Shown here: positions 36,444-58,989 of the stretch, in pieces | Layout of the letters: the number at the start of each line of letters is the position of its first letter | How positions within the stretch are numbered: the first letter of the stretch is position 1 | Virus record (IMG/VR): IMGVR_UViG_3300001528_000285 | Span: 1,381 to 65,380 of that record | DNA length: 64,000 nt | From: a virus | Taxonomy: Duplodnaviria > Caudoviricetes | Strand: one strand, 5' to 3' | The notes under the pieces: generated by a model | Databases searched by the model: none | What the model was told of the DNA's origin: nothing | What the model saw: only the letters and a program-made list of their open reading frames with translations | Made by a program: the position numbers and the translations under genes

Positions 36444-39400
36444 TTAATTAGTGATAGGCTGGAACCACAGACCGCCAACAGGCAGATCAGTAGGTTCAGT
36501 AGCACTATAAGAAATAACAGAAGTAAGATCGCTCATATAAGCAACCACGTTGGCAGTACCACCGTGAGTATAAGTAAGCTTATTGGAAGCATTCTCACCA
36601 ATCTTATCAAGCTGAGTACGGTTAGCATGAGTAGCAGCCGTAACAGCAGCATCAATATCAGCAACAGAAGAAGTCGGCTTATCATTAATGTTAGCCCAAG
36701 CAACAGAACCAGCCTCACCAGTAATGGAAGCAGGCAGTTTGCTGTTAGCATCAAGTTTCAGAACCTTACCAGCGGCAGCGGTATCAACAACTTCAGTAGC
36801 AGCAACAAAGGTACTATTAGCATCACTCTTAGTATAAACATCGGTAATACCATAACCAGCAACTGTAGTAGGAGTACCAGTAACACCAGACCAAGCAACA
36901 CTAGTAGCGGAACCAGCCGTATAAACTTCATAACCAGCTTCTGTACTAAGTTTACTGTCATCAACAACAAAGTACATCTTAGAAGTTGCAGTAACCTTAA
37001 CAGTATCACCAGTCTGAACTTCATTAGCTGTAAGAGCAAAACGTGCAGTATCATTAGCGACAACAACACAACGTTCAAGAGCACCATGAGGAATATTCTC
37101 AATAGAGAGAACGCCAGTAATAACAGAAGCAGGTAACTTAGCATTAGCATCAAGCTTTAAGAGCTTATTGGCAGTAGCAGTAGTAGCAACATCGCCAACA
37201 GGAACGAAAGCAGCATCAGCTTCAGTCTTAGTATAAGCATCAGTAATACCATAACCAGAAATGGTAGTCTGCTTACCAGTAATGTTACCCCAAGCAACAG
37301 AACCAGCCTCACCAGTGATGGAAGCAGGAAGCTTACCATCACTATCAAGCTTCAGAAGCTTACCAGCGGCAGCGGTATCAGAAATAGTCGTAGCAGCAAC
37401 AAAAGTAGTATTAGCCTCATCCTTGGTATAAGCATCAGTAATACCATAACCAGAAATGCTAGTCGGTTTGCTAGTAACACCAGACCAAGCAACATTAGTA
37501 GCAGTCTTAGCATTACCAGTAATATCAGCAGGAAGCTTAGCATCAGCATTAAGCTTCAGAACCTTATTGGCAGTGGCAGTAGTAACGATATCATTAGAAC
37601 TAACAACATCAGTAATACCATAACCAGCAATAGTGGTCGGAGTATTCTTAACACCAGACCAATCAACTTCAGAAGCAGTAGCAGCATTACCAGTAATGTC
37701 AGTAGGAAGCTTACCGTTTTCATCCATAGCAAGGATGGCATTCGGAGTCGGCGTATCAACTAACTGAGTAGCTTCAAGGAACTGATTATCAGCTTCAGCC
37801 TTAGTGTAAGTATCAGTAATACCATAACCAGCAACTGTAGTCGGAGTACCAGTAACACCAGTCCAAGCAACGTTAGTAGCAGTCTTAGCATTACCGGTGG
37901 TATCAACAGCAATCTTACCAGTAGAGTCAACCTTCAGAAGCTTACCAGCATTATCAGCACCACCAGCGCTAACAGCATCAGTAACCTCAGAGCTAATATG
38001 GCTATGCTTAGCAGCAGCCTTACCATTAGCAAGATCATAAGCAGCCTTAACAGCAGCAGGAGAAGCAGCAATACCACCAGAAGCACCGGAACTAGAATCC
38101 GTAGCATCACTCAGCTTAACGTGACCATAGAGAGTACCAGAACCAACACCATAAGTATTCTCAGCAGAAGCATGAGAACCAGGAGTGAAACTAGTAGGCT
38201 TATTCTCAATACCAGTCCAATCAACCTTAGAGGCACTAGCAGCATTACCAGTAATATCGGCGTCAAGAGTACCGGAAGCATTGAGCTTCAAAATCTTATT
38301 AGCTGTAGCAGTATCAACGACATCGGTTGCAAGAACAAAGTCCGCAGCATGCTTGCCGTCAACAGTATCAGCATCACCAGTGATGGAAGCAGGTAACTTA
38401 GCATTAGCATCAAGCTTCAGAAGTTTATCTGCAGTAGCAGTAGAAACAACATCATCAGAACTAACAGCATCAGTAATACCATATCCACCAAGAGTGGTAG
38501 GAGTACCAGTAACACCAGACCAAGCAACAGTAGAAGCAGAACCAGCCGTATAGACTTCATAGCCATTTTCACTATTAAGCTTAGTATCATCCTTAACAAA
38601 GTACATTTTACCAGACTCAGTAACCTTAACAGTATCACCAGTCTGGACTTTGTCAGTTGTCAGAGCAAAACGTGCAGTATCATCAGCGACAACAACACAA
38701 CGCTCAAGAGCACCATGAGGAATATTCTCAATAGAGAGAACACCAGAGATGACAGAAGCAGGAAGCTTAGCCTCAGCATCAAGCTTCAGAATCTTATTAG
38801 CAGCCGCAGTTGTAACAACATCACCAACAGGAACATAGGCAGCATCAGACTCATCCTTAGTATAGGCATCAGTAATACCATAACCAGCAAGATCAGTCGG
38901 AGTACCAGTAACACCAGACCAAGCAACAGAACCAGCCTCACCAGTGATAGATGCAGGCAGCTTAGCATCAGCATTGAGCTTCAGAATCTTATTGGCAGTA
39001 GCAGTAGCAACGATCTCGTCAGACTTAACAGCATCAGTAATACCATAACCAGCAAGATCAGTCGGAGTACCAGTAACACCAGTCCAAGCAACATTAGTAG
39101 CAGTAGCAGCATTACCAGTGATGTCAGCAGGAAGCTTAGCCTCAGCATTGAGCTTCAGAAGCTTGTTAGCGGTAGCAACAGTCTTAACCTCATCAGAGTT
39201 AACGGCATCAGTAATACCATAACCAGCAAGAGTAGTCTGCTTACCACCAAGATTAGTCCAAGTAATATCAGTCTTATAAGCAAGTTCATTACCATCATAA
39301 GTCGGCTTGGAATCAGCTTCACCAATCTTATCAAGCTCGGTCTTATTAGTATGAGAATGCTTCTTAGAGACAGCATCATCAATTTCAACAACAGTAGAAG

Positions 39401-39884
39401 TCGGCTTATCCTGGAGATTAGCCCAAGACACAGTCGGAATATCAGAAGTTTCAAAGCTTACACGAATAAGGCTCTTATCAGCCTTGATCATGTAAAGTTC
39501 ATAAGTATCATCACCAGCAACGGTAACAAGCTCACCAGTCTTAACACGGTCACCATTATCAGTGATAAAGGAAACAGCTTCAGCATAGGTAGAGAAAGTG
39601 AGATTCTTACCAATCTCCTGAACGGTTTTATTAGAACGGATTACATATAAACTGTAATCACCAGTATAAGTAGAATCGGTAACGCCATCGGTCTCCTTGT
39701 TAGCAACAGCAACAACCTGACCAGGATAAGCATAAGAACCGGTTTCATTAATATAAGCTTCAAGTTCAGCCTTGGTATTAAACACTGAAGTTGCATCCAG
39801 CGGGTAAGCACCCATTCTGGAATACATCTTCATAATACCTAACACTTTAGATTCATTTCCAGTAATATACGGTAAATTAGCCAT
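36444..39884 (-). CDS. Repeat-rich tail fibre/virion appendage protein (1146 aa)
   Basis: Many W..VTGTPTT..GYGITDA and KLLKLDANAKLPA repeats; strong codon bias. Confidence 0.7.
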   Translation of the reverse strand: MANLPYITGNESKVLGIMKMYSRMGAYPLDATSVFNTKAELEAYINETGSYAYPGQVVAVANKETDGVTDSTYTGDYSLYVIRSNKTVQEIGKNLTFSTYAEAVSFITDNGDRVKTGELVTVAGDDTYELYMIKADKSLIRVSFETSDIPTVSWANLQDKPTSTVVEIDDAVSKKHSHTNKTELDKIGEADSKPTYDGNELAYKTDITWTNLGGKQTTLAGYGITDAVNSDEVKTVATANKLLKLNAEAKLPADITGNAATATNVAWTGVTGTPTDLAGYGITDAVKSDEIVATATANKILKLNADAKLPASITGEAGSVAWSGVTGTPTDLAGYGITDAYTKDESDAAYVPVGDVVTTAAANKILKLDAEAKLPASVISGVLSIENIPHGALERCVVVADDTARFALTTDKVQTGDTVKVTESGKMYFVKDDTKLNSENGYEVYTAGSASTVAWSGVTGTPTTLGGYGITDAVSSDDVVSTATADKLLKLDANAKLPASITGDADTVDGKHAADFVLATDVVDTATANKILKLNASGTLDADITGNAASASKVDWTGIENKPTSFTPGSHASAENTYGVGSGTLYGHVKLSDATDSSSGASGGIAASPAAVKAAYDLANGKAAAKHSHISSEVTDAVSAGGADNAGKLLKVDSTGKIAVDTTGNAKTATNVAWTGVTGTPTTVAGYGITDTYTKAEADNQFLEATQLVDTPTPNAILAMDENGKLPTDITGNAATASEVDWSGVKNTPTTIAGYGITDVVSSNDIVTTATANKVLKLNADAKLPADITGNAKTATNVAWSGVTSKPTSISGYGITDAYTKDEANTTFVAATTISDTAAAGKLLKLDSDGKLPASITGEAGSVAWGNITGKQTTISGYGITDAYTKTEADAAFVPVGDVATTATANKLLKLDANAKLPASVITGVLSIENIPHGALERCVVVANDTARFALTANEVQTGDTVKVTATSKMYFVVDDSKLSTEAGYEVYTAGSATSVAWSGVTGTPTTVAGYGITDVYTKSDANSTFVAATEVVDTAAAGKVLKLDANSKLPASITGEAGSVAWANINDKPTSSVADIDAAVTAATHANRTQLDKIGENASNKLTYTHGGTANVVAYMSDLTSVISYSATEPTDLPVGGLWFQPITN

Positions 39885-45615: not shown

Positions 45616-46824
45616 TTAATCAATAATAATTGTTGTATATCCCATCTTCTTCAATTCTGAAATACTAATGGAAGTAGGTTTATCTTCCTTAGAGTCTGTA
45701 TCCGGTCCAATGATAGTTGTATTATTATCATCAGGTTCAGCTTCATCCGATGTGATAGGTCCTGTAGTTTCAGACTTATCATCATCAGGTTTAGAAGTTT
45801 CTGTAACAGTAATATACTTACCATTACAATAACCAGTAATACTATTTGTAATAACCTTATACCAACCATTAGAATATTCTTCTAAGATAGTAACAGGAGT
45901 TTCAAATGCAATTGCTGTTAAGATACCATAAGAGGTTGAAGGGCCTGATCTAATATTTAAACCTTCTTTAGCATTAACTTTACCTGTCATTTTAGAAGAA
46001 GTTGATGTATTAAATGTATAATTTTCAAGAGTAACATCGTCTGTAGGTACATATCCATATGTTTCACCATAAAGAATCTTGTACCAATTATCAATTTTGT
46101 CAACTACTTCAACTCTACATTTATTAAATAATACACCAATATTCTCACTACTTATAGATGTTAATTTTCTTACAACTACATCTGTTTTCATACAATAACC
46201 GATACATTTATAGTTATATGCACTAGAAACAACCTTAGAATCAACCCAATTAACACCAAGATATTTACAGATTCCTTTAGCTTCTAATTCTGCCATATCT
46301 CTTCTAAATGCTTGAGTTTTTAATAAAGCAACATCATCTTCACTAGTGTGAAAAGCATGTTCAACAAGAACAGCAGGCATCTTAGTTTCCCTAGTAACAT
46401 AAAGATTCTGAACAACAGGATCTCTCTGTTTTAAACCATACTTAGTTTTCATATCAGGAAATACTGTACTCATAATAGTACTAGCAGCTTTAGAAGCATT
46501 ATTACTATTATAATATACATGAGTAGAATATCCTCTAGCAGAATACCAACCACCATTTCCAGCAGCATTCGTATGAATACTGAAAAAGAAATTTACATTG
46601 TTACTATTAGCAACTTTAACACGAGCTGCTAAATCATCAGAACTATCAGCATACTTTCTAGTACGATAAACTTTAATACCACATCTTTCAAGATGCGCTT
46701 GAATCTTTAGAGCAAGATCCCAGTTAAATTCATATTCAAAATATGATTCATCTGGTGATCTTTTTCCAGCAGTTTTTGTATAGTGTCCAGCATCAAGTGC
46801 AACAGAAATTGCCATTGTAGACAC
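45616..46824 (-). CDS. Endolysin: N-acetylmuramoyl-L-alanine amidase (Amidase_3) with SH3b domains
   Basis: VALDAGH, EYEFN, SIHTNA, VLVEHAF; SH3b signatures LNIRSGPSTSY and GWYKV. Confidence 0.9.
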   Translation of the reverse strand: MSTMAISVALDAGHYTKTAGKRSPDESYFEYEFNWDLALKIQAHLERCGIKVYRTRKYADSSDDLAARVKVANSNNVNFFFSIHTNAAGNGGWYSARGYSTHVYYNSNNASKAASTIMSTVFPDMKTKYGLKQRDPVVQNLYVTRETKMPAVLVEHAFHTSEDDVALLKTQAFRRDMAELEAKGICKYLGVNWVDSKVVSSAYNYKCIGYCMKTDVVVRKLTSISSENIGVLFNKCRVEVVDKIDNWYKILYGETYGYVPTDDVTLENYTFNTSTSSKMTGKVNAKEGLNIRSGPSTSYGILTAIAFETPVTILEEYSNGWYKVITNSITGYCNGKYITVTETSKPDDDKSETTGPITSDEAEPDDNNTTIIGPDTDSKEDKPTSISISELKKMGYTTIIID

Positions 46825-47366: not shown

Positions 47367-48023
47367 TTACTCACCATCCTTTACAGAATCACAAATTAAT
47401 GAATAAAATTCTTGATGAAGTTCATTATTTACAGAAAAACTGTTAAAATAATCTTTAAATGTATTTGAATGAATAAAAGATATTTCATCTTTTATTTGCT
47501 GATCTGTATAAGTTTTTCCTTTTCGTAAATCTTTAATCTGATTTTTACAATATTCAGATACAGGAAAACATTGTGAAAAATCTCCCGTATAATAAAATCT
47601 TCTTAAAATATCACCCAGAATTAAAATTCTATTATGATTATTATATTGAAAATCATGATCAATTAATTCTAATGTTAAATTATATGTGTATCTTGGTGCA
47701 ATATTCATAAGACTATTTTTATTTATATCAATAAATTTTTTTAATGACTTATTAATATAAATAATGTTAACTAAATCTCCAATAAATAATGGATTAGAAC
47801 AACATTGAATTTTTTCAATAGATTGATATGGTAGATAAAAAATATCATAATCATTAATAATATCATGACTTTGTGCATCATTAGAAATTTCATTATTTGA
47901 CTTTACTAATGAAAAATAATCATGATCAGATGTTTCTGTATTTGTACCATATATTCTTGAACCTGCTATTGAAATAAATAATGGAATACCAATATTGGTA
48001 TTTATAATTTGATTAATATCCAT
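47367..48023 (-). CDS. Pol-beta superfamily nucleotidyltransferase
   Basis: IAGSRIYGTNTETSDHDY (GS...D.D motif); RBS AGGTGA. Confidence 0.75.
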   Translation of the reverse strand: MDINQIINTNIGIPLFISIAGSRIYGTNTETSDHDYFSLVKSNNEISNDAQSHDIINDYDIFYLPYQSIEKIQCCSNPLFIGDLVNIIYINKSLKKFIDINKNSLMNIAPRYTYNLTLELIDHDFQYNNHNRILILGDILRRFYYTGDFSQCFPVSEYCKNQIKDLRKGKTYTDQQIKDEISFIHSNTFKDYFNSFSVNNELHQEFYSLICDSVKDGE

Positions 48024-48032
48024 ATAAATCAC

Positions 48033-48665
48033 CTATTTATTTGTCCCTGAACAAGTTGAATAGCATCCGCCACTACATCCACCAGTACAATCATTACTAC
48101 AGGAACCACCGCAACTACCAGAACATCCACCGCTGCATCCACTACCACAATCACCACTACAACCACCACGACATGAATAACCACATGCGCTATGACATTC
48201 ATCCCAACAATCATTATTACAGGTATATCTACAACCCAATGCACAATCACTATCACAATCGCCATCACATCCGCCACATCCGCCACAGCCACTACATCCA
48301 CTACATCCAGAATAACAGCCAGATGAACATAATCCAGTACAACTTGAAGCACATCCACTGTTAGCTTGTGATGCAGTTACTGATATAGTTTTCAATGTGT
48401 TAACTTTGCTTTCTAATGTAATTAAATCAGAATCTTTAACAATTCTATCACCAGATGTACTAATGTCATTAGTAATTGCATTTACAGGTACAGCATTTTT
48501 TGTATAGTGTTCTTTACTTATGATTTTTCCTTTTGCAGGAACTACTGTGTAATCATAACTAGTTCCTGCATAATCTGCAACAGATCCTGTATTATTTCGT
48601 CTATTACATTCTGCTTTTACAGCAGCTTTTAATGTATTTAATCTGTCAGGAGTTATTAAAGCCAT
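48033..48665 (-). CDS. CXXX-repeat substrate protein (210 aa)
   Basis: About 105-aa N-terminal domain, then about 27 Cys mostly spaced CxxxC with a short CxxC stretch. Confidence 0.85.
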   Translation of the reverse strand: MALITPDRLNTLKAAVKAECNRRNNTGSVADYAGTSYDYTVVPAKGKIISKEHYTKNAVPVNAITNDISTSGDRIVKDSDLITLESKVNTLKTISVTASQANSGCASSCTGLCSSGCYSGCSGCSGCGGCGGCDGDCDSDCALGCRYTCNNDCWDECHSACGYSCRGGCSGDCGSGCSGGCSGSCGGSCSNDCTGGCSGGCYSTCSGTNK

Positions 48666-48667
48666 AT

Positions 48668-50014
48668 TTATTCACCTTCTTTCGAAAGATTTTTTAAATA
48701 CTCATACTCCTCTTCTCCAATAATTTCAACAGCCCATTCTTTAGGGATATATAATTCATATCTTTCTGTCATATTATTTTTTCTATAATGATTATTCCAA
48801 AGATATGAAATAGCCAATACTCTAGCCTTATGCATAACACATGTATAAGTAAGTCTCTTATTAGGAGAACCTGTTACTTCATAATTATATGCAGTGCACC
48901 AGCCACAACCACCAGCAATAGGACAATTAAAACATTCATCAGTAGACTGAGATCTTCTTGTTATACATCTAAGACAATCTACTCTATCACACTGAGTTTT
49001 TGTCTGCATAATTCCATTATAAACATCACCAATAATATAGGGTTCTTGTTTACCACAAATAGAATTATCCATATAACGTGTACATGGGAAGATATCACCT
49101 TTCCAGTCAACAGATATCATTAATCCATTTCCACCACACCAATTATTATCATTATCAGGTGATAAAGGCTTTCCTGCATACATAGGATCGAGTATAGATA
49201 AATATATCTCATCAACTAAATTATTCTCGATCAAATAATCAGAGATTTCTTTTAGTTGTTGATATAAAATCCTTGCATGCTCTACTGTCCATCCTTCTTC
49301 ATATACACAGTTTAAATTAATATTTACATACCCAGTATCAATCATTGATACAATTGCTTTCTTTAGATACATGATATTTCCAGGAGCAATTGTCAATTTT
49401 GAATTTACCATACGTCCATAAGTTTTTCTAAAATGGTTTACAGCAGCCATTGCTCTATCATAGCTACCTCGTCCTAATGCATCAACTCTACATGCATCAT
49501 GTAACTCTTTATTACCATCAATAGAAATACCAAGAGACAAATGATTAATATTTTTCTTTATATAATTTTGAACTTTTTCATCAAAATATAACATACCATT
49601 GGAACAGATACTCACTCGATATCTATTAGCCCAAGGATGTTGTCTAATAAAACACTGCTCAATAAAATAATCAGTAATCTGATCGAGTAAATCAATCTCT
49701 AAGAAAGGCTCACCTCCAATGAATTCAAGAATTGCTCCTTTTGAATCATCAGATGTGATATATTGATTTACTCGTTCATCTGCATCTAAAACCATATCAA
49801 TAAATCTTTTTGCTACATCAAAAGACATATGATTATGACGCTTTTCATGTTGATAACAATACGTACATCTTAAACAGCAATCTTCAGTTACAGCAAAAGT
49901 TATATTTTTTACATGATTACCATTGATATGTATTGGTGAAAAATCATCATCAGGAAATAATCTATTGATACTATCATTATAACCTTCAGTGCTATTTTTA
50001 TGCATAGATAACAT
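48668..50014 (-). CDS. Radical SAM/SPASM peptide maturase, CXXX-repeat target family
   Basis: CCLRCTYC motif, FIGGEP, SIDG; SPASM CGGNG...FPC...CFNC...GCGWC...C. Confidence 0.9.
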   Translation of the reverse strand: MLSMHKNSTEGYNDSINRLFPDDDFSPIHINGNHVKNITFAVTEDCCLRCTYCYQHEKRHNHMSFDVAKRFIDMVLDADERVNQYITSDDSKGAILEFIGGEPFLEIDLLDQITDYFIEQCFIRQHPWANRYRVSICSNGMLYFDEKVQNYIKKNINHLSLGISIDGNKELHDACRVDALGRGSYDRAMAAVNHFRKTYGRMVNSKLTIAPGNIMYLKKAIVSMIDTGYVNINLNCVYEEGWTVEHARILYQQLKEISDYLIENNLVDEIYLSILDPMYAGKPLSPDNDNNWCGGNGLMISVDWKGDIFPCTRYMDNSICGKQEPYIIGDVYNGIMQTKTQCDRVDCLRCITRRSQSTDECFNCPIAGGCGWCTAYNYEVTGSPNKRLTYTCVMHKARVLAISYLWNNHYRKNNMTERYELYIPKEWAVEIIGEEEYEYLKNLSKEGE

Positions 50015-50018
50015 TTTA

Positions 50019-50315
50019 TCAACCCCTATAAATAGTTAAAGTAGAAGTAGCAAAGTCTAAATTCCAAGAAATATTTCCTTCATAATGCTTAGGTTTAACA
50101 CAGATATCAAATAACTCAGTTTTAGCAGCTTCATATTTAATATAGAAATCTTTATACTCTTCATGATACTTTTTAAATGATTCAGTATCAGTTAATCCTT
50201 TACTCATAGCAAAGGTAAGCAAATCTTTACGAGAATTTACTTCATAATACAGAGATTCAACATAATCTCTTAAACTTTCAGAAATAGCAACGACTTCTAA
50301 AATTTCTTTATTCAT
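50019..50315 (-). CDS. CXXX modification system accessory protein
   Basis: 98 aa, helical, ending WNLDFATSTLTI like the small partner proteins of these systems; late-type promoter at 50369-50380. Confidence 0.6.
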   Translation of the reverse strand: MNKEILEVVAISESLRDYVESLYYEVNSRKDLLTFAMSKGLTDTESFKKYHEEYKDFYIKYEAAKTELFDICVKPKHYEGNISWNLDFATSTLTIYRG

Positions 50316-50447
50316 AGTATTCTCCCTCTCTTTAATAAAAATAAAGGTAATAAAAAATATATTACCTTTATTACATTGTTTGATTAATGATAAAATGTAG
50401 ATATGTGAGAAAAATCTCACATATCTACATAAATTTATATTTATAAA

Positions 50448-50551: not shown

Positions 50552-50854
50552 TTAAAACATATCTTGTAGAATTTTTACTTCTTTCGCGCGCTCAATCATC
50601 TGTTCATGAACGTAATCATAAAGTACCTTCATTGCTTCAGGTGCTTCACCGTTCTTGGGCTTGTAATCATTGATTAGAGCAACAACTCGGTCGTGAAGTT
50701 TGGTGTAATGCTTTACTTCCTCTTGGGAGAGGTCGTAAAATATTTTCGCAGTAGCAGCGTCCTTGGATTTGTATTTCAGCGCGAGTTCGATGTAGGTGTC
50801 TGCGTCGTTGAGTTCGGATGTGATGTGCTCGAATAAGCATTTGATGATTTTCAT
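50552..50854 (-). CDS. Small ferritin-like four-helix protein, GC-richer than its surroundings
   Basis: E...Y, EEVKH and HE metal-ligand pattern; visibly higher GC. Confidence 0.6.
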   Translation of the reverse strand: MKIIKCLFEHITSELNDADTYIELALKYKSKDAATAKIFYDLSQEEVKHYTKLHDRVVALINDYKPKNGEAPEAMKVLYDYVHEQMIERAKEVKILQDMF

Positions 50855-50904: not shown

Positions 50905-53353
50905 TTAGACCAAAGAATCGTAGGAATCTTTAATGCAAATAACTGTATTACCTTTAGTTGGAGGGATTATAAATTTACCGTTTCCATAACATGCATTACC
51001 ATTATAATCTTTAGGTAATGTACCTTCAGTCCATGTAGCACAATCAGTAGAATAATAAATCTTAGTATTTTGTATTAGTATAAATTTATTAGAACCGTAT
51101 GTAGCACCTCCGGAATATGGTTTATTACCAACAGTCCACGTAATGCCATCTGGAGATGTCATAATATTGTCTACAGAAGAGCCTGAAACTACTAACTTAC
51201 CATTACCATAACAGAAATCATTCCAATAACCATATTTAGGAGAAGCTGTAGCAACCCAATTAATACCATCAGTGGAATAAGCAGCAGTAGTGGTATTACC
51301 ATTAGGTAGAGTAACAAATTTACCATTTCCATAGCCCAAAGCTGACCAATAAGTACTACTTGGTAATGTACTAGCAGTCCAATTAATGCCATCAGTTGAA
51401 TAAGCAGCTATATTGCTACCAAAATTAGTATCAGTTACTATAGTCACATATTTACCATTACCATAACACACAGAGCCCCACTTAGCAATACTAGGTAATG
51501 TACTAGCAGTCCAATTAATGCCATCAGTTGAATAAGCAACTATATTACTACTATAACCATCGGTTGCTGTAGCTACATATTTACCATTACCATAACACAG
51601 TTGTTTCCAATAAGCAGTACTGGGCATTGTACTAGCAGTCCAGTTAATGCCATCAGTTGAATAAGCAACTTTATTAGTATTTCCCCATGGAATGGAAACA
51701 AATTTACCATTACCATAGCATATATTTGACCAGTTGCCATCGCTAGGCATCGTCCCTGTAATCAAACTAGGTTTTACACTTACCGCAACTTTCGAATACC
51801 CCGTACAATCAAACGTTCCATTTGCTGTTTCAGTCAACGTTCCTTTAGTACAAACTTCGCTCGCTGTAACCGTTACCGCAGTACCACTCTTCGCAGCCAT
51901 AGCATTATACCCAGCAGTACCAGTACTAATTTTCGGAGTAACAGTTGCAGTAGTACCACTAATACTCTTAGTCGCACTTACAGTACCCAATGTACCAGCC
52001 GCAATAGCAGATATAGATACAGTTTTATAATTAGTAACATCAATATTACTCTGAACGGAAGTACCAGAAGCTAACGCCTTATTACCACTTACTAGTTCAC
52101 TAGCACTTACGGTCACCGCAGTACCAGTTTTAGTTGTACCAGTAATATATCCAGTAGTATCTGTTACCTTCGGAGTAACTGTAATACTGTTATTACTGAC
52201 AGTACCTTTAGTAGCAGTAGGAGTTCCCTGTGTACCACTCGCAACACTCTTACTTACTGCACTAGCATAATATCCAGCAGGCACGCTCACTGTTGCACCA
52301 CTTGCACTTAAATTACTCTCAGTCCTAGTTTCAATATTACCAGTTACTAACTTTCCATCATTATCATAAGCAGATACGCTATTCAGCATACCACTCTTAA
52401 TAGCACTTGCAGCACTTGCTCCATCAGGAGTCAAATGTGCAAGGCTAATCTTTACATCATCTGTATATCCTTTATTAATATATAAATAACTATCTTGTAC
52501 TAATATAGGAGCAGAAGTTGTACCAGAAATATCTTTATAAGATGCTTCTGTTTTACCATCTGCTACTGCATTACCAAAACTAGCACCAGTAACTTTAGTA
52601 CCAGAAGTCATAAAACCCGCAGAAGCAGAAACTGTTCCTTGGGTGAAAGTAGTTCCACTAATAGAACCAGCATTTTCACTAATAGCTGATGCTGCAACAT
52701 TAGCAGTTTTATAGTTAGTTACATCAGTATCACCAGAAGCAGTAATAGTTTTAGTACCATTAGTTAACTCTGATGCAGTAACAGTTACAGCAGTACCAGT
52801 TTTAGTTGTACCAATAATGTAACCAGTAGTATCTGTAGAAGAAGGTGTAATACTAATACTATTATTACTCACAGCACCTTTAGTAGCCGTAGGAGTACCT
52901 TGTGTACCATTTTCTACAGATTTACTTACTTCATTTGCATAGTAACCAGCCGGTACACTAACAGTAGCACCACTAGCAGACAAATCGCTCGCATTTTTTT
53001 TTTTCGATAGTTCCTGTGTATTTAGTACCTTTTGAATACGCAGTAACATCTTTTAACATCTGATCACCACTTGTCATAGTGGCATCTCCAGACGGATCAC
53101 CTTGTTTTTGAACTTCTGTAGCATAATATCCTGCAGGAATCGTTACAGTTCCATTTACAGAAGTAACATCATCACTAGTTTTAGTAGGAATTGAACCAGT
53201 AATTTTCGTACCACCAGAGTAAGCTGTCTTTGATTCTAATATATCACTAGCCGCAGCCGTTGCATCAGTAGTATCATTTAAATTACCAGCATTTAATGCC
53301 ATACCATCAACAATGATAGCTTTACCATCAACTGCAATAATTTTTAAACCCAT
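50905..53353 (-). pseudogene. Tail fibre with C-terminal Asp-box beta-propeller, frameshifted at an A11 tract
   Basis: ORFs 52973-53353 and 50905-53049 fuse into one 815-aa protein if the tract at 52994-53004 is A10. Confidence 0.75.
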
Positions 53354-53560
53354 AATATCATCTCCTTTTAAAATTTGGAAATGCTTCCATACTTATATTA
53401 CTGTGTTTTTTATATATAATAAATATTATTATTTGTTATATACTCTTGAAAATATTAAACCAGAAGATTTTTTATAATATAATCATTTCCTTATTATAAT
53501 GTTTTACTTAGTAATAAAATGTAGATATGAGAGAAAAATCTCTCATATCTACAAAAAATT

Positions 53561-53695
53561 TTAAGATACGGTGTACTTTTCACCAACAATTTCTTTATAT
53601 TCATCTGCTGTTATAACACCCTTTTTAACAGCATTACCGACCATAGTTTTAGTCCATAACTTATATTCATACCATCTTTTAATTTTGTCTTTCAT
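53561..53695 (-). CDS. XkdX-family small tail protein
   Basis: MKDKIKRWYEYKLWTKTMVGNAVKKGVITADEYKEIVGEKYTVS*. Confidence 0.8.
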   Translation of the reverse strand: MKDKIKRWYEYKLWTKTMVGNAVKKGVITADEYKEIVGEKYTVS

Positions 53696-55257: not shown

Positions 55258-55366
55258 AGTATCACATCTCCTTTTTATAATTATTGCCTTATCATATTGT
55301 TAGTATTAATAATAAAATGCGGATATGAGAGAAATTTTTTTCTCTCATATCCATATAAAAATTTAT

Positions 55367-55633: not shown

Positions 55634-55791
55634 AATAAAAATCTCCTTTCATATATAGTATTATATAAATGTTAATAATAAAAATTATATTATTTTTTGT
55701 ATTAAATTTTTATGGATATAATTAATACTAATTAAATGTAGATATGAGAGGTTTTTCCTATATCTACATTTAATTAGTATATAAATTATAA

Positions 55792-55894: not shown

Positions 55895-56242
55895 TCACTT
55901 GCCTCCATTCATAAGCATCTCATAAATCTCAACGAGTGCAGATTGCACATCAGTTAATTCTGTACTATTATTACTAATTTCCTTCTTAATACGTTCCATT
56001 ACCTTTTCTTCTTCAGTCTTCTTGCCAATAATAATATAGGATTCATTATTATAAATCTGATTTGCAACTAATACAGCATCTTCAATAATCTCTTCACTAT
56101 TATCATCAAGATTAATAATAGTTACTGTATCCATATTGTTATCAAATACTTTATCTTCAATTATTTCACTTGATACATAGTTATTACCATTTAATACTAA
56201 GTTATCAAGAATAGTTCCGTCATGTAACTTAATTCTATACAT
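55895..56242 (-). CDS. Tail module hypothetical protein
   Basis: Overlaps the RT stop; ends DVQSALVEIYE. Confidence 0.7.
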   Translation of the reverse strand: MYRIKLHDGTILDNLVLNGNNYVSSEIIEDKVFDNNMDTVTIINLDDNSEEIIEDAVLVANQIYNNESYIIIGKKTEEEKVMERIKKEISNNSTELTDVQSALVEIYEMLMNGGK

Positions 56243-57452
56243 TATGATATGCCTCCTCTACTAATTTTTCAAATAATTTATTCATATTTTTACGTTGTTT
56301 TTTACTCATGAGTTTATAATAATTATTAAACCATGATACAAACCAAATGTTAAAATCAAATTCTGATAAAACACCAGCAAGTTTTTTCATCTTTTTACGC
56401 ATTGCTGTAAGTCTTTTTGGATTAATCTTTTGAATAATTCGACCAGTTTCAGTTAATGAGTATTTAATTTGAAGAAACTTCCAAGTATCCGATAATTTGC
56501 ATATACGAGTCTTTTTAATATTAATTGTAATACCAAGTGAATCAGCAATTTTTATAATATCAATAAGCAATGTTTCTAAAAACTCTTTGCTTTCATGTAT
56601 TATATAACAGTCATCATTATATGCAGCATATAATTTAATTCCTTGTACTATTTTTATATATTTATCAATAGGAGATCTATACAATATTCCAGAACTCTGT
56701 GATATTTGATCTCCTAAATTCAAATGTTTATCCATATATTTTTCACCAGTTAATAATTCCGAATCTATTTTATTATAATCCAAGGAATTAAATAAAACGT
56801 TCATACAATTTGCATATTCATCATCATCCATATATGAAACATCAATTCTTGAACGTTTCATAGATTCTTTCAATAACCATAATGCATATTCATCTTGTAT
56901 ATATTTATTAAACATGTCCATTAATGTCTGGTGTACAATGTTATCATAATATTTAGAAAAATCAATTAATAAAATATAGCCATCATTACTTCCATGCGTT
57001 ATATAATAATGTCTCAAATGCTTAAGAAGTCTTTCTCTTGTAAATTTTAATCCTTTTCCTTTAACACTCGCTCCACTATCATATATAAGATATTTTTTAA
57101 TGGCTGGATTAATGATCCCATCACAAAGAGCATGTTTAACAATTCTATCTTGTATTTCTTCTCCTGTGATTGGTCTAGTCTTTCCTCTTTCATGTAATAT
57201 AAATTTTGTAGTAGGATAAAATTTATATTCCTTATTTATTAATTCTTGTTGCATTCTGCTTAATTCAAGAAGATAAGACATTTCAAATTTTTGTACCTTA
57301 GATTTCCAACTACTGTTTTTCTTTGCTTTAAGATAGCTTTCATACAGTAGATTTCCATCATATATTTCACGCTTATAGTCGCTTTCACCTGCACGGCAGG
57401 TACTCTCGTAAGAGCGGACGTCGTGTTTAGTATTTACCATACGGAAGGACAA
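56235..57452 (-). CDS. DGR reverse transcriptase
   Basis: KTRPI, DRIVKHAL, IDFSKYYDNI, LGDQISQ, YNDD; adjacent TR and avd. Confidence 0.92.
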   Translation of the reverse strand: MSFRMVNTKHDVRSYESTCRAGESDYKREIYDGNLLYESYLKAKKNSSWKSKVQKFEMSYLLELSRMQQELINKEYKFYPTTKFILHERGKTRPITGEEIQDRIVKHALCDGIINPAIKKYLIYDSGASVKGKGLKFTRERLLKHLRHYYITHGSNDGYILLIDFSKYYDNIVHQTLMDMFNKYIQDEYALWLLKESMKRSRIDVSYMDDDEYANCMNVLFNSLDYNKIDSELLTGEKYMDKHLNLGDQISQSSGILYRSPIDKYIKIVQGIKLYAAYNDDCYIIHESKEFLETLLIDIIKIADSLGITINIKKTRICKLSDTWKFLQIKYSLTETGRIIQKINPKRLTAMRKKMKKLAGVLSEFDFNIWFVSWFNNYYKLMSKKQRKNMNKLFEKLVEEAYHNV

Positions 57453-57506
57453 TCTCTCCTTTCTATTTACTACGAAGAGCTCAAGTGGCTATTAAATCGT
57501 AGAATT

Positions 57507-57599
57507 GAAATCGGGGCGCACGCCATTCTCATTGGACGCGTTATTGTAGTTCGCATTGCCGTTGTTGTTCACATTAGCAAAATTAGCAGAAGACACGTT
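57507..57599 (-). repeat. DGR template repeat (TR)
   Basis: AAY-rich 93-nt copy of the VR; all 17 differences fall at TR adenines. Confidence 0.95.
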
Positions 57600-57654
57600 A
57601 TCAGATATTGCCCTTTAAAATTTGTTGCTATTTTTATATTATTTTTTAATTAAA

Positions 57655-58194
57655 TTAATTTTCTTTATATATTTTCTTTTTAAATTTATTATCAGATTTA
57701 CGCCAAGCTTTAATCAAATCAATTTCTTTCTGTATTCTATCACCAAAACGTAAATATTTATTAACATCAACAGGCAATATTTCAATTGCATACTGTAACT
57801 CTTGTACGAGCCGATAACATTGCCCGATTGCTTTATCTTGGTAGAGTCTGCGTTCAATCAATTCTTCTTGGCATGTCGGATAAATATTATTTGCAATATA
57901 TACTAATTCAACAATGCTTCTTAAACAATCAATAACTACTTTACGCTCATCTGCAATAAACCAGTCATCAAATGCTTTATTTTTTGCCATAATCTTATCA
58001 AACATTTCATTTTCTTTCGGTGATAATTGTTCTCGTGTTCTTCCACCAAACCGTTTTTCAACTTTTTTAATCGCTTTATCCATGTCATAACCAAAATTAT
58101 ACAATAATAATTCAGTAATTTCAGTTCGCAGTTTATTTAAATTATGAAATACTTCAAACTCTGATTCTTTACGTTTTGATTTTACTACAGACAT
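57655..58194 (-). CDS. avd: DGR accessory variability determinant (Avd-like)
   Basis: Helical, IANNIYP...ERRLYQDKAI...WRKSD; lies between target and TR. Confidence 0.85.
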   Translation of the reverse strand: MSVVKSKRKESEFEVFHNLNKLRTEITELLLYNFGYDMDKAIKKVEKRFGGRTREQLSPKENEMFDKIMAKNKAFDDWFIADERKVVIDCLRSIVELVYIANNIYPTCQEELIERRLYQDKAIGQCYRLVQELQYAIEILPVDVNKYLRFGDRIQKEIDLIKAWRKSDNKFKKKIYKEN

Positions 58195-58226
58195 TTCTTA
58201 TATAGTCCTTTCTTTTTTTTTGAAGT

Positions 58227-58248
58227 CGCGCCCCACAAAGGGGGCGCG
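58227..58248 (-). promoter_or_regulatory. DGR GC-rich hairpin/cruciform downstream of the VR
   Basis: CGCGCCCC-N6-GGGGCGCG immediately after the target stop codon. Confidence 0.85.
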
Positions 58249-58251
58249 GAT

Positions 58252-58989
58252 TTAAGATATTGAGAAAGCGGGGCGCACGCCAATCTCATGGGACGCGTAA
58301 AAGCAGAACGCATAGCCGTAGCTGCTCACACGAGCAAAATAAGCAGAAGACACGATGTCCCTAAGCCAAAACCATTGTCTATTAGAAATCATATACGGGT
58401 TATGAGTAAATAAAGGAAACTGTGATTTATCTACAGTATATAAATACGGAATAGATGATCCGTCAGAAGATGTAGCAAATACTTTACCACCATAAACATT
58501 TTGTTCAGTCATGAGTTCAACTGTACTGTCAGCCCAAACTCCGCCTGAGGGTTTACCATTACTAACAGCATTAACTAATAATTGTCTATGGGTTAAGATA
58601 TGATCTGCACCAAATGCGGTATTAATAGTTGTCTTTGCTTGATCAAGTCCAGTTGTATACATTTTTGAACCAACGTAACCACCAGTAGTTACGTTATCAT
58701 CATTCATAACATGATAATACATATTTGTATCTGGAACAATAGTAACATGATGTTTAGTCGTTGCAGTATCTCCAGTAGTGAGATAATAATCGAAGGCTGC
58801 AATACGATAATTAATACTACCAATAGTCCAATAATCACCAATAAATAAATCATCAAATGTACCAGCAGAAATGGCTGCCCATTGAGCAGATGTAACAGAT
58901 GTGCCTAAATACTTTCCACGATAAATAGAATTATGGGAACCAGCATTTGCAAATATTTTAAAAGAAGAAGCGCCATTATTCATAATCAT
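58252..58989 (-). CDS. DGR target protein, probable C-type lectin fold
   Basis: C-terminal VR, WFWLR...GVRPAF pattern. Confidence 0.85.
   Translation of the reverse strand: MIMNNGASSFKIFANAGSHNSIYRGKYLGTSVTSAQWAAISAGTFDDLFIGDYWTIGSINYRIAAFDYYLTTGDTATTKHHVTIVPDTNMYYHVMNDDNVTTGGYVGSKMYTTGLDQAKTTINTAFGADHILTHRQLLVNAVSNGKPSGGVWADSTVELMTEQNVYGGKVFATSSDGSSIPYLYTVDKSQFPLFTHNPYMISNRQWFWLRDIVSSAYFARVSSYGYAFCFYASHEIGVRPAFSIS
58264..58356 (-). repeat. DGR variable repeat (VR)
   Basis: Encodes IVSSAYFARVSSYGYAFCFYASHEIGVRPAF; matches the TR except at adenines. Confidence 0.95.

Follow-up and report, generated by a model that had tools for sequence, protein, structure and literature searches.

What a radical S-adenosylmethionine (SAM) maturase might do among the tail and lysis genes of a phage is the question raised by a cassette of three genes in viral DNA of the class Caudoviricetes (Duplodnaviria). 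The DNA considered here, referred to as the window, is a stretch of 64,000 nucleotides (nt), positions 1,381 to 65,380 of the IMG/VR virus record IMGVR_UViG_3300001528_000285, and all coordinates given below are those of the window. It makes up most of the 65,380-bp record, which has a CheckV completeness of 27% and is therefore a fragment of a large (giant) phage. The cassette encodes, all on the minus strand, a small helper protein, a radical SAM enzyme with a SPASM-type cysteine pattern and a target protein ending in a ladder of regularly spaced cysteines. In the current analysis the favoured reading, to which we give about an even chance, is that the cassette represents a phage-specific form of the CXXX-repeat radical SAM maturation system and makes a thioether-cross-linked, tail-associated protein.

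The three genes are separated by gaps of 4 nt and then 2 nt, and the close packing goes on after the target gene, with genes for a 221-residue protein (0 nt), a 174-residue protein (2 nt) and an endolysin (15 nt). A first-pass annotation, made from the sequence alone, had described a tightly coupled operon of an accessory gene, a radical SAM/SPASM enzyme and a cysteine-rich substrate of 210 residues lying between tail and lysis genes. The short gaps, the family assignment of the enzyme and the 27 cysteines of the ladder confirm the operon. Its position also holds, with XkdX and a 714-residue repeat protein upstream and an endolysin (Amidase_3 and SH3 domains) and a membrane protein downstream.

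The radical SAM enzyme

The enzyme is assigned to TIGR04115 ('radical SAM peptide maturase, CXXX-repeat target family') with a score of 431 bits, the cut-off being 350, over the model positions 2-358 of 359. The scores for other families are far below their cut-offs, namely PapB (166 bits, cut-off 340), the SCIFF maturase TIGR03974 (106, cut-off 425), QhpD (84, cut-off 453), HxsB (81, cut-off 370) and TIGR04463 (60, cut-off 525). The next-best characterised families of the enzyme, PapB, SCIFF maturase and QhpD, are thioether formers. The cysteines of the CX3CX2C motif (C46, C50 and C53) are conserved in 100% of 58 homologues, as is each cysteine of the SPASM pattern (C293, C311, C361, C364, C370, C373 and C392). 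Pfam assigns Radical_SAM and Fer4_12 to the enzyme without a separate SPASM match.

The best solved relative of the enzyme is the SCIFF maturase CteB (PDB 5WGG, 5WHY), with a score of only 62.9 bits. From residue 33 onward the enzyme aligns to CteB residues 94-442, which comprise the radical SAM core and the SPASM domain. Since the alignment begins at CteB residue 94, the enzyme is without the first ~93 residues of CteB, the N-terminal recognition domain known as the RRE (recognition element of RiPPs, peptides made by the ribosome and modified after translation). A much longer radical SAM gene of 1,181 residues, about 700 residues above the usual length, is found in a 147-kb viral contig (L068, 12269-15814) and fits an inserted element such as an intein.

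Distribution and genomic neighbourhood

An alignment-based search fetched 92 loci, 80 of them viral (of 89 confirmed) and 12 in bacterial genomes, the latter belonging to Ruminococcus, Oscillospiraceae, Gemmiger, Christensenella, metagenome-assembled genomes of Clostridia and one Bacteroidota. A locus search with the enzyme as a single-protein query gave none. The loci represent about 37 lineages, the count being 38 at 80% identity of the N-terminal domain of the target (N-domain). Of the 92 loci holding a target homologue, 88 contain the enzyme; tblastn detects the helper in 40 loci and clustering detects it in 53, besides a divergent form. The gene order varies (helper-enzyme-target or target-x-helper-enzyme), and the genes stay together on one strand. 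The only other genes of the window that travel with the cassette are the 174-residue family and, rarely, the 221-residue gene. Some phages encode two targets per cassette, as in L054 (10001-13105) with targets of 434 and 557 residues containing 87 and 113 cysteines, and in L056 and L064 a target lies on each side of the enzyme gene.

The cassette is located in tail modules across these lineages. The neighbour scan covered two genes on each side, and representatives of the commonest neighbour clusters are baseplate wedge (phrog_6, phrog_43), tail (phrog_76, 5302, 1887), tape measure, collagen-repeat fibre and tail-fibre or virion structural proteins (phrog_2163, 7037). In 33 lineages the two upstream genes give matches to tail-fibre, tail, collagen-like and minor-tail PHROGs, and all the functionally labelled families among the top 25 are tail families. 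On the downstream side the commonest families are endolysins, minor tail proteins and, with six members, the tail fibre phrog_5073, and several lineages have the cassette between two members of one fibre-related cluster. The first-pass annotation had raised the question of whether homologues cluster in phage tail modules; the upstream and downstream scans show that they do, in dozens of unrelated phages. The recurrence of the same kit in such modules suggests that its product is probably an enzyme-cross-linked virion accessory.

The target protein

The target contains 28 cysteines, 27 of which lie within the last 106 residues with 22 spacings of four (CxxxC) and four spacings of three (CxxC). 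This ladder is made up mostly of glycine (27) and serine (20), one residue in four being cysteine, and its DNA is periodic at 12 nt and 9 nt. It opens with an invariant junction, S-G-C-A-[AS]-S-C-T-G-L-C. Within the CxxxC units X1 is Ser or Thr in 45%, X2 is Gly in 41% and X3 is preferably Gly, Ser or Thr; Asp occupies only 5 of the 22 X3 positions. Gly, Ser and Thr predominate in the ladder and no acidic acceptor is fixed, so that the type of cross-link is not inferable from it. The only family match of the ladder is phrog_6085, a PHROG with no assigned function. The repeat model TIGR04114 has no match in the window's record at E<=10; its cut-off is passed by homologue ladders in three bacterial genomes, and PF27846 is precomputed on many homologues. 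Across the loci the ladder ranges from 18 to 122 cysteines with a constant N-domain.

A ladder with such a density of cysteines, flanked by Gly and Ser, could also be a metal or iron-sulfur carrier. It would then mainly bind metal or clusters in the manner of metallothionein, the enzyme making few modifications or helping in the loading, and the metal-loaded protein would be present in the virion or the lysate. The bacterial counterparts of the target, described below, carry twin-arginine signals, which are the route for folded, cofactor-bearing proteins, and the CrpABC genes of an archaeal system are induced on pyrite (PMC13692751). We regard this role as quite unlikely, as a dedicated SPASM maturase accompanies the target in nearly all the loci, which argues for covalent modification, and no metal-handling genes recur near the cassette in the neighbour scans.

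The first 104 residues of the target form a conserved domain. A search found 33 homologues at 44-62% identity to it, and L12, K13, E19, R22, R23 and K56 are invariant. AlphaFold2 predicts four helices for the N-domain (pLDDT, the predicted score of the local distance difference test, 64-83) and leaves the ladder unmodelled (pLDDT <45). A profile search against 1.84 billion representative proteins gave 548 representative clusters at E<=1e-3, 328 of them at E<=1e-10. Among the 150 of the 548 that were listed, the N-domain is situated at the very N-terminus of a protein of 160-340 residues in nearly all. A ladder is present in 102 of the 146 proteins inspected, the remainder being for the most part fragments shorter than 150 residues. 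A word-index search for longer N-domain-bearing proteins found none. The first-pass annotation had held the N-terminal part of about 105 residues to be more than a short leader and to resemble a fibre anchor. The strong conservation, the predicted fold and the size of the family bear out the former view; the latter is not supported, the domain giving no meaningful fold match in the PDB and BFVD searches and being almost never fused to another protein.

Rare variants depart from this organisation. P0067 (375 residues) has a 177-residue extension before the N-domain, which matches residues 12-189 of a family of 440-630-residue proteins encoded in the tail modules of the loci (phmmer 7e-19). This family has no assigned function and is found once directly upstream of the target. 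Judged from this match, the P0067-type fusion is the only direct link of the N-domain to a tail-module protein. Two other rare variants have insertions of 110-125 residues inside the N-domain. PDB sequence searches with two variant targets were empty. Long proteins of 1,580-1,880 residues ending in ladders also exist, in which PHROGs and Pfam labelled only the ladder and the Flg_new repeat. One of them is encoded on viral contigs recoded for TAG, with no enzyme detected nearby, and for a second the locus search gave none.

The target is encoded by a free-standing gene near the lysis genes, and could for that matter be a RiPP-like cargo in which the N-domain serves as a long recognition leader. 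The modified ladder, cleaved or not, would be released at lysis and have its effect beyond the virion, as a product that may be bacteriocin-like, signalling or protective and that helps the phage or the lysogen. Nif11 and nitrile-hydratase-type RiPP precursors are known to have long conserved leaders of 70-90 residues. The relatives of the enzyme are RiPP maturases, the N-domain is never present on recognised structural proteins, and the processing of the cysteine-rich protein CrpA is partly dependent on its N-terminal domain (PMC13692751). A cargo of this kind is nevertheless considered unlikely. Neither a leader protease nor an exporter is among the recurrent neighbours in the 33 lineages (two genes on each side), and the nearly sevenfold variation in ladder length is unusual for a bioactive peptide. 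Further, the Bacteroidota targets are recognised without the N-domain, and the cassette is consistently placed within fibre genes, at times between two of them.

Chromosomal counterparts in Bacteroidota

Samples of ~300 genomes each were screened with TIGR04115, and the cut-off was passed in four Bacteroidota genomes and one Clostridia genome. The counterparts share with the window's cassette a maturase above the family cut-off, a helper of ~90-100 residues beside the enzyme, a ladder with cysteine at every fourth position and the junction C-A-[AS]-S-C-T-G-x-C at the start of the ladder. They differ in the N-terminal part of the target. In the Bacteroidota targets the 100-residue N-domain is replaced by a twin-arginine motif, then a hydrophobic stretch and next a lipobox-like L-x-G-C that leads straight into the ladder. 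Longer database proteins of 480-590 residues likewise carry an R-R-x-F-F-K-K signal and no N-domain. One of the Bacteroidota loci adjoins a gene for HrpB helicase and a second SPASM-like gene, not phage genes.

The enzymes of the two groups also fall apart. Those of Bacteroidota score 540-597 bits on TIGR04115 in contrast to 431 bits here. In a quick maximum-likelihood tree, rooted by lower-scoring outgroups, 28 enzymes paired with N-domain targets lie on one side of a branch with a Shimodaira-Hasegawa-like approximate likelihood ratio (SH-aLRT) of 97. The Bacteroidota enzymes and one Clostridia enzyme form the sister group (SH-aLRT 98).

At the sequence level the N-terminal part of the target is thus interchangeable, being an export signal in the bacteria and a predicted folded domain in the phages, and the ladder, the junction and the enzyme are common to both. 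Since the N-domain is exchanged for an export signal in Bacteroidota, we infer that it is a placing module and not merely a leader for recognition by the enzyme. The description as a CXXX-repeat radical SAM/SPASM system in the first-pass annotation is correct; its accompanying phrase, bacterial RiPP-like loci, is only partly apt, as the Bacteroidota targets are twin-arginine/lipobox proteins and not leader-core peptides.

The helper protein

The open reading frame of the helper could extend to 50420; the homologues have 89-107 residues, and this extension is therefore probably not translated. An alignment of 24 sequences reveals conservation of W-x-[LF]-D-F towards the C-terminus, and F88 is invariant. 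The AlphaFold2 model (pLDDT 93.8) consists of a strand, two long helices and a β-hairpin. A Foldseek search of the PDB with this model returned nothing at E<=0.001, RRE-type proteins being absent from the top rows as well, and the identification of the helper as a PqqD-like RRE is not supported by it.

The model of the CXXX-repeat helper, TIGR04116, has no match to the window's helper at E<=10, whereas it matches the helper of a Bacteroidota locus at 97 bits. A profile comparison between the window's helper and this TIGR04116 member is weak (hhalign 56%), only the C-terminal W-x-[LI]-D-F hairpin being in common. The helper has the same size and position and is probably a distant counterpart of TIGR04116.

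Comparison with characterised systems

PapB, the ranthipeptide maturase of freyrasin and the second-best family match, is a SPASM enzyme which forms several thioethers in repeated Cys-X3 units. It is set apart by its score, far from the 340-bit cut-off, by its fused recognition domain and short peptide substrate, and by its requirement for Asp or Glu at Cys+4, a position that is the next cysteine in the window's target. The SCIFF substrate also differs, being a peptide of ~45 residues with six cysteines. QhpD, involved in the maturation of quinohemoprotein amine dehydrogenase, is a SPASM enzyme that cross-links a structural protein subunit in the cytoplasm before its export. It is a distant relative, and its substrate QhpC has a few Cys-Asp/Glu links in a small subunit, with neither a ladder nor a phage context.

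CrpC, a SPASM enzyme of Methanococcus voltae, installs ranthionine cross-links in the cysteine-rich protein CrpA (PMC13692751). CrpA is made up of an N-terminal domain and a C-terminal repeat region and serves as a precedent for protein-sized substrates. The differences lie in the enzyme family (TIGR04463, 60 bits), in the repeats of CrpA, which are 17-residue units with C-x-x-Q/D, in the fused RRE of CrpC, and in its archaeal occurrence with no virus context. The relatives of the enzyme and the published CrpC/CrpA case are the only support for thioether chemistry in the cassette, which is thus suggested by analogy.

The HXS system (HxsA-D, PMC13128918) also comprises a radical SAM-matured repeat protein with a small partner, and is a proven antiphage effector acting as a protein and not as a peptide. 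By analogy, the matured target could block superinfecting phages or counter the host defence, its position in the tail module being incidental. The distant similarity of the enzyme to HxsB and the presence of diversity-generating retroelements (DGRs) and other conflict-type genes nearby are in keeping with such a role, which we nonetheless think very improbable. HXS is a host-encoded bacterial system, periplasmic and signal-peptide dependent, with His-Xaa-Ser repeats and two radical SAM enzymes, whereas the phage targets are without any signal. The enzyme is far below the HxsB cut-off, and defence cargo is not usually fixed among fibre genes across dozens of lineages.

A literature search found no study of TIGR04115, 'CXXX repeat', PF27846 or radical SAM enzymes in tail modules. 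Set against the literature, the cassette represents a variant peculiar to phages within a family of which only bioinformatic models are known.

Proposed role of the cassette

On the favoured reading, that of a maturation system for a tail-associated protein, the three genes would be co-transcribed late in infection, probably from an AR9-type late promoter. The SPASM enzyme, having no fused recognition domain, would work together with the 98-residue helper on the 210-residue target in the cytoplasm. Many of the 27 ladder cysteines would most likely be converted to intramolecular sulfur-to-carbon (thioether) cross-links, and the cross-linked ladder may form a compact, reduction-proof and protease-resistant rod or knot. 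The N-domain would be kept and not removed, and would position the ladder, with a component of the tail fibre or the baseplate as the most probable site. The product is thus proposed to be a virion accessory and not a free peptide.

Several observations weigh against this proposal. The N-domain protein is free-standing in nearly all of the 150 listed representatives (of 548), and the predicted N-domain fold matches no virion protein or known fibre anchor; the BFVD scan gave family members only, and a Foldseek-independent scan of 48,161 PDB chains gave generic helical matches (Z <=6.2). The ladder sequence has no fixed Asp/Glu acceptor of the kind seen in PapB or QhpD substrates, and as the helper is not RRE-like any role given to it is a guess. 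Cargo genes, too, are classically found in the slot between fibre and lysis genes. In the window itself the 714-residue repeat protein upstream has no family match in Pfam/PHROG-type scans, so that its label as a fibre rests on its repeats and position. Finally, the cultured-phage collection contains no close homologue; its only matches are a faecal contig of 30 kb and, in jumbo phages of Salmonella and Erwinia, distantly similar enzymes with 25% identity. A cultured prophage carrier is Gemmiger formicilis DFI.6.10 (locus L089).

A stronger form of the favoured reading makes the cysteine ladder a genuine structural part of the tail, a rod or knot that dozens of thioethers formed by the enzyme would hold together and that the N-domain would keep on the virion. 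This falls short of an even chance and is put forward tentatively.

Promoter, terminator and timing

The window encodes a homologue of the β' subunit of the AR9 non-virion RNA polymerase (PDB 7S00, E 1e-12). The AR9 late promoter consensus is AACA-N6-TA/G, the last base being the start of transcription (PMC5312081). A match to it, AACAATGTAATA, spans 54-65 nt upstream of the helper gene. In the intergenic regions AACA-N6-TA occurs 13 times against 5.3 expected, a ~2.5-fold excess, and 12 copies are situated 12-110 nt upstream of starts on the same strand. For the looser AACA-N6-TW there is no enrichment in the window, with 132 matches where 169 were expected, and a sigma-70 promoter scan of the window remained at chance level (42 found, 43.7 expected). 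The late-type promoter of the first-pass annotation is hence retained as a match to the AR9 late consensus, and as a consensus match only. A second hairpin with a 9-bp stem (AAAGGTAAT...ATTACCTTT) and a T-run occurs at 50341-50369, right at the predicted start, so that a stem-loop would open the leader of the cassette mRNA.

Four related intergenic palindromes, perfect or near-perfect (ATGTAGATATGWGAGA and its complement), are present in the minus-strand late region, at 50395-50430, 53519-53554, 55317-55356 and 55736-55769. Half-sites number 10, where 1.78 would be expected. The palindromes probably serve as terminators or as processing sites punctuating the fibre genes and the cassette.

In nine loci (L031, L034, L063, L065, L066, L067, L075, L084 and L085) the cassette genes are interrupted solely by in-frame TAG codons, the enzyme gene having 3-8 of them and no other stops, and the phages of these loci therefore read TAG as sense. 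TAG recoding is concentrated in the late genes of recoded phages. The TAG-bearing contigs, several of which are 140-170 kb long, are probably from TAG-recoded phages; L118 and L119 resemble them. Late expression of the cassette is plausible from these sequence features.

Neighbouring genes in the window

The features of the cassette and of its surroundings are collected in Table 1.

Table 1. Coordinates of the cassette and of the flanking features in the window
Feature	Position	Strand	Basis or remark
Endolysin, Amidase_3 and two SH3 domains; lysis end of the late region	45616..46824	-	Family matches
All-helical protein, 174 residues	46840..47364	-	Same phmmer family as clusters 11 and 52; L005/L006 family matched at hhalign 95%
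Pol-beta-type nucleotidyltransferase (RlaP-like), 221 residues; abuts the target gene	47367..48032	-	phrog_388 (weak)
Target protein, 210 residues, whole gene	48033..48665	-	Open reading frame and cysteine count
Target cysteine ladder, residues 105-210, 27 cysteines, Gly/Ser-rich	48033..48353	-	Cysteine spacing, DNA periodicity, phrog_6085
Target N-domain, residues 1-104, predicted helical, specific to phage-type targets	48354..48665	-	Alignments, AlphaFold2, profile search
Radical SAM/SPASM maturase, 448 residues, CXXX-repeat target family, without fused N-terminal RRE	48668..50014	-	TIGR04115 431 bits; phrog_1802; CteB alignment; cluster cysteines 100% conserved
Helper protein, 98 residues	50019..50315	-	ATG start with strong ribosome-binding site GAGAGGGAGA before it
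AACAATGTAATA, AR9-type late promoter consensus match; predicted start 50369, 54 nt before the helper ATG	50369..50380	-	Consensus match only
Terminator-like hairpin, 16-bp stem and T-run; separates the upstream 100-residue gene from the cassette	50395..50430	-	Palindrome family
Fibre-like repeat gene in two frames, 126 and 714 residues; tail-fibre end	50905..53353	-	Repeats and position
XkdX; precedes the 126/714-residue gene pair	53561..53695	-	PF09693, 62 bits

The nucleotidyltransferase gene follows the target in only three loci, L006 and L027 included, and is thus probably an occasional neighbour. Its Atlas clusters are almost all viral, and the PDB sequence search with it was empty. Several lineages have a member of the 174-residue family immediately downstream of the target, and this family may therefore be a fourth component of the cassette; an Atlas search with this protein gave no informative match.

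Upstream of the cassette the overlapping frames of 126 and 714 residues are joined by an A11 tract (53030-53045). The two frames share a repeat motif, which points to one fibre-like gene of ~820 residues split by the homopolymer. Such a split points to slippage or to an on/off switch. A 100-residue protein encoded shortly upstream of the cassette (50552-50854) has weak rubrerythrin/ferritin-like matches (E ~1e-3, E-x-x-H motif). It is encoded in a locally GC-richer stretch, and its adjacency to the cassette is not conserved in other loci.

Beyond the lysis genes a 1,146-residue protein (36444-39884) has many repeated domains, with eight stretches matching the tail fibre phrog_7389, and lies in a stretch of 40-42% GC against ~30% for the window. 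Structural-type genes are hence present on both sides of the block of lysis genes and cassette.

The window also contains a complete DGR (56235-58989), with a reverse transcriptase (56235-57452, phrog_1423) and an Avd-like gene (57655-58194). The template repeat (57507-57602) is 81% identical to the variable repeat (58264-58359), which lies in the C-terminus of a free-standing 245-residue protein. One spot-checked mismatch, at the repeat start, is T on the plus strand and thus adenine on the coding (minus) strand. Reverse transcriptases are found near the cassette in other lineages as well (L051, L076/L077).

Implications

Radical SAM/SPASM maturases have been studied as makers of small natural products, and in the present case a clade of them is associated with a target of protein size, encoded in the tail modules of many phages of anaerobic gut bacteria. 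A ladder that proved to be both cross-linked and present in the virion would show how phages of oxygen-free habitats stabilise an exposed part without disulfides. The system is a small one of three genes. If the proposed maturation is true, tail assembly would gain a step that depends on an enzyme, and a family that dates from the TIGRFAMs of the 2011 era and was never characterised would acquire a function. A link with host recognition is hinted at by the varying length of the ladder and by the DGRs close by. Should the ladder prove to be a structural element, this would be the first radical SAM, RiPP-type chemistry in the building of a virus particle, and one widespread in phages of strict anaerobes, where disulfides are unavailable.

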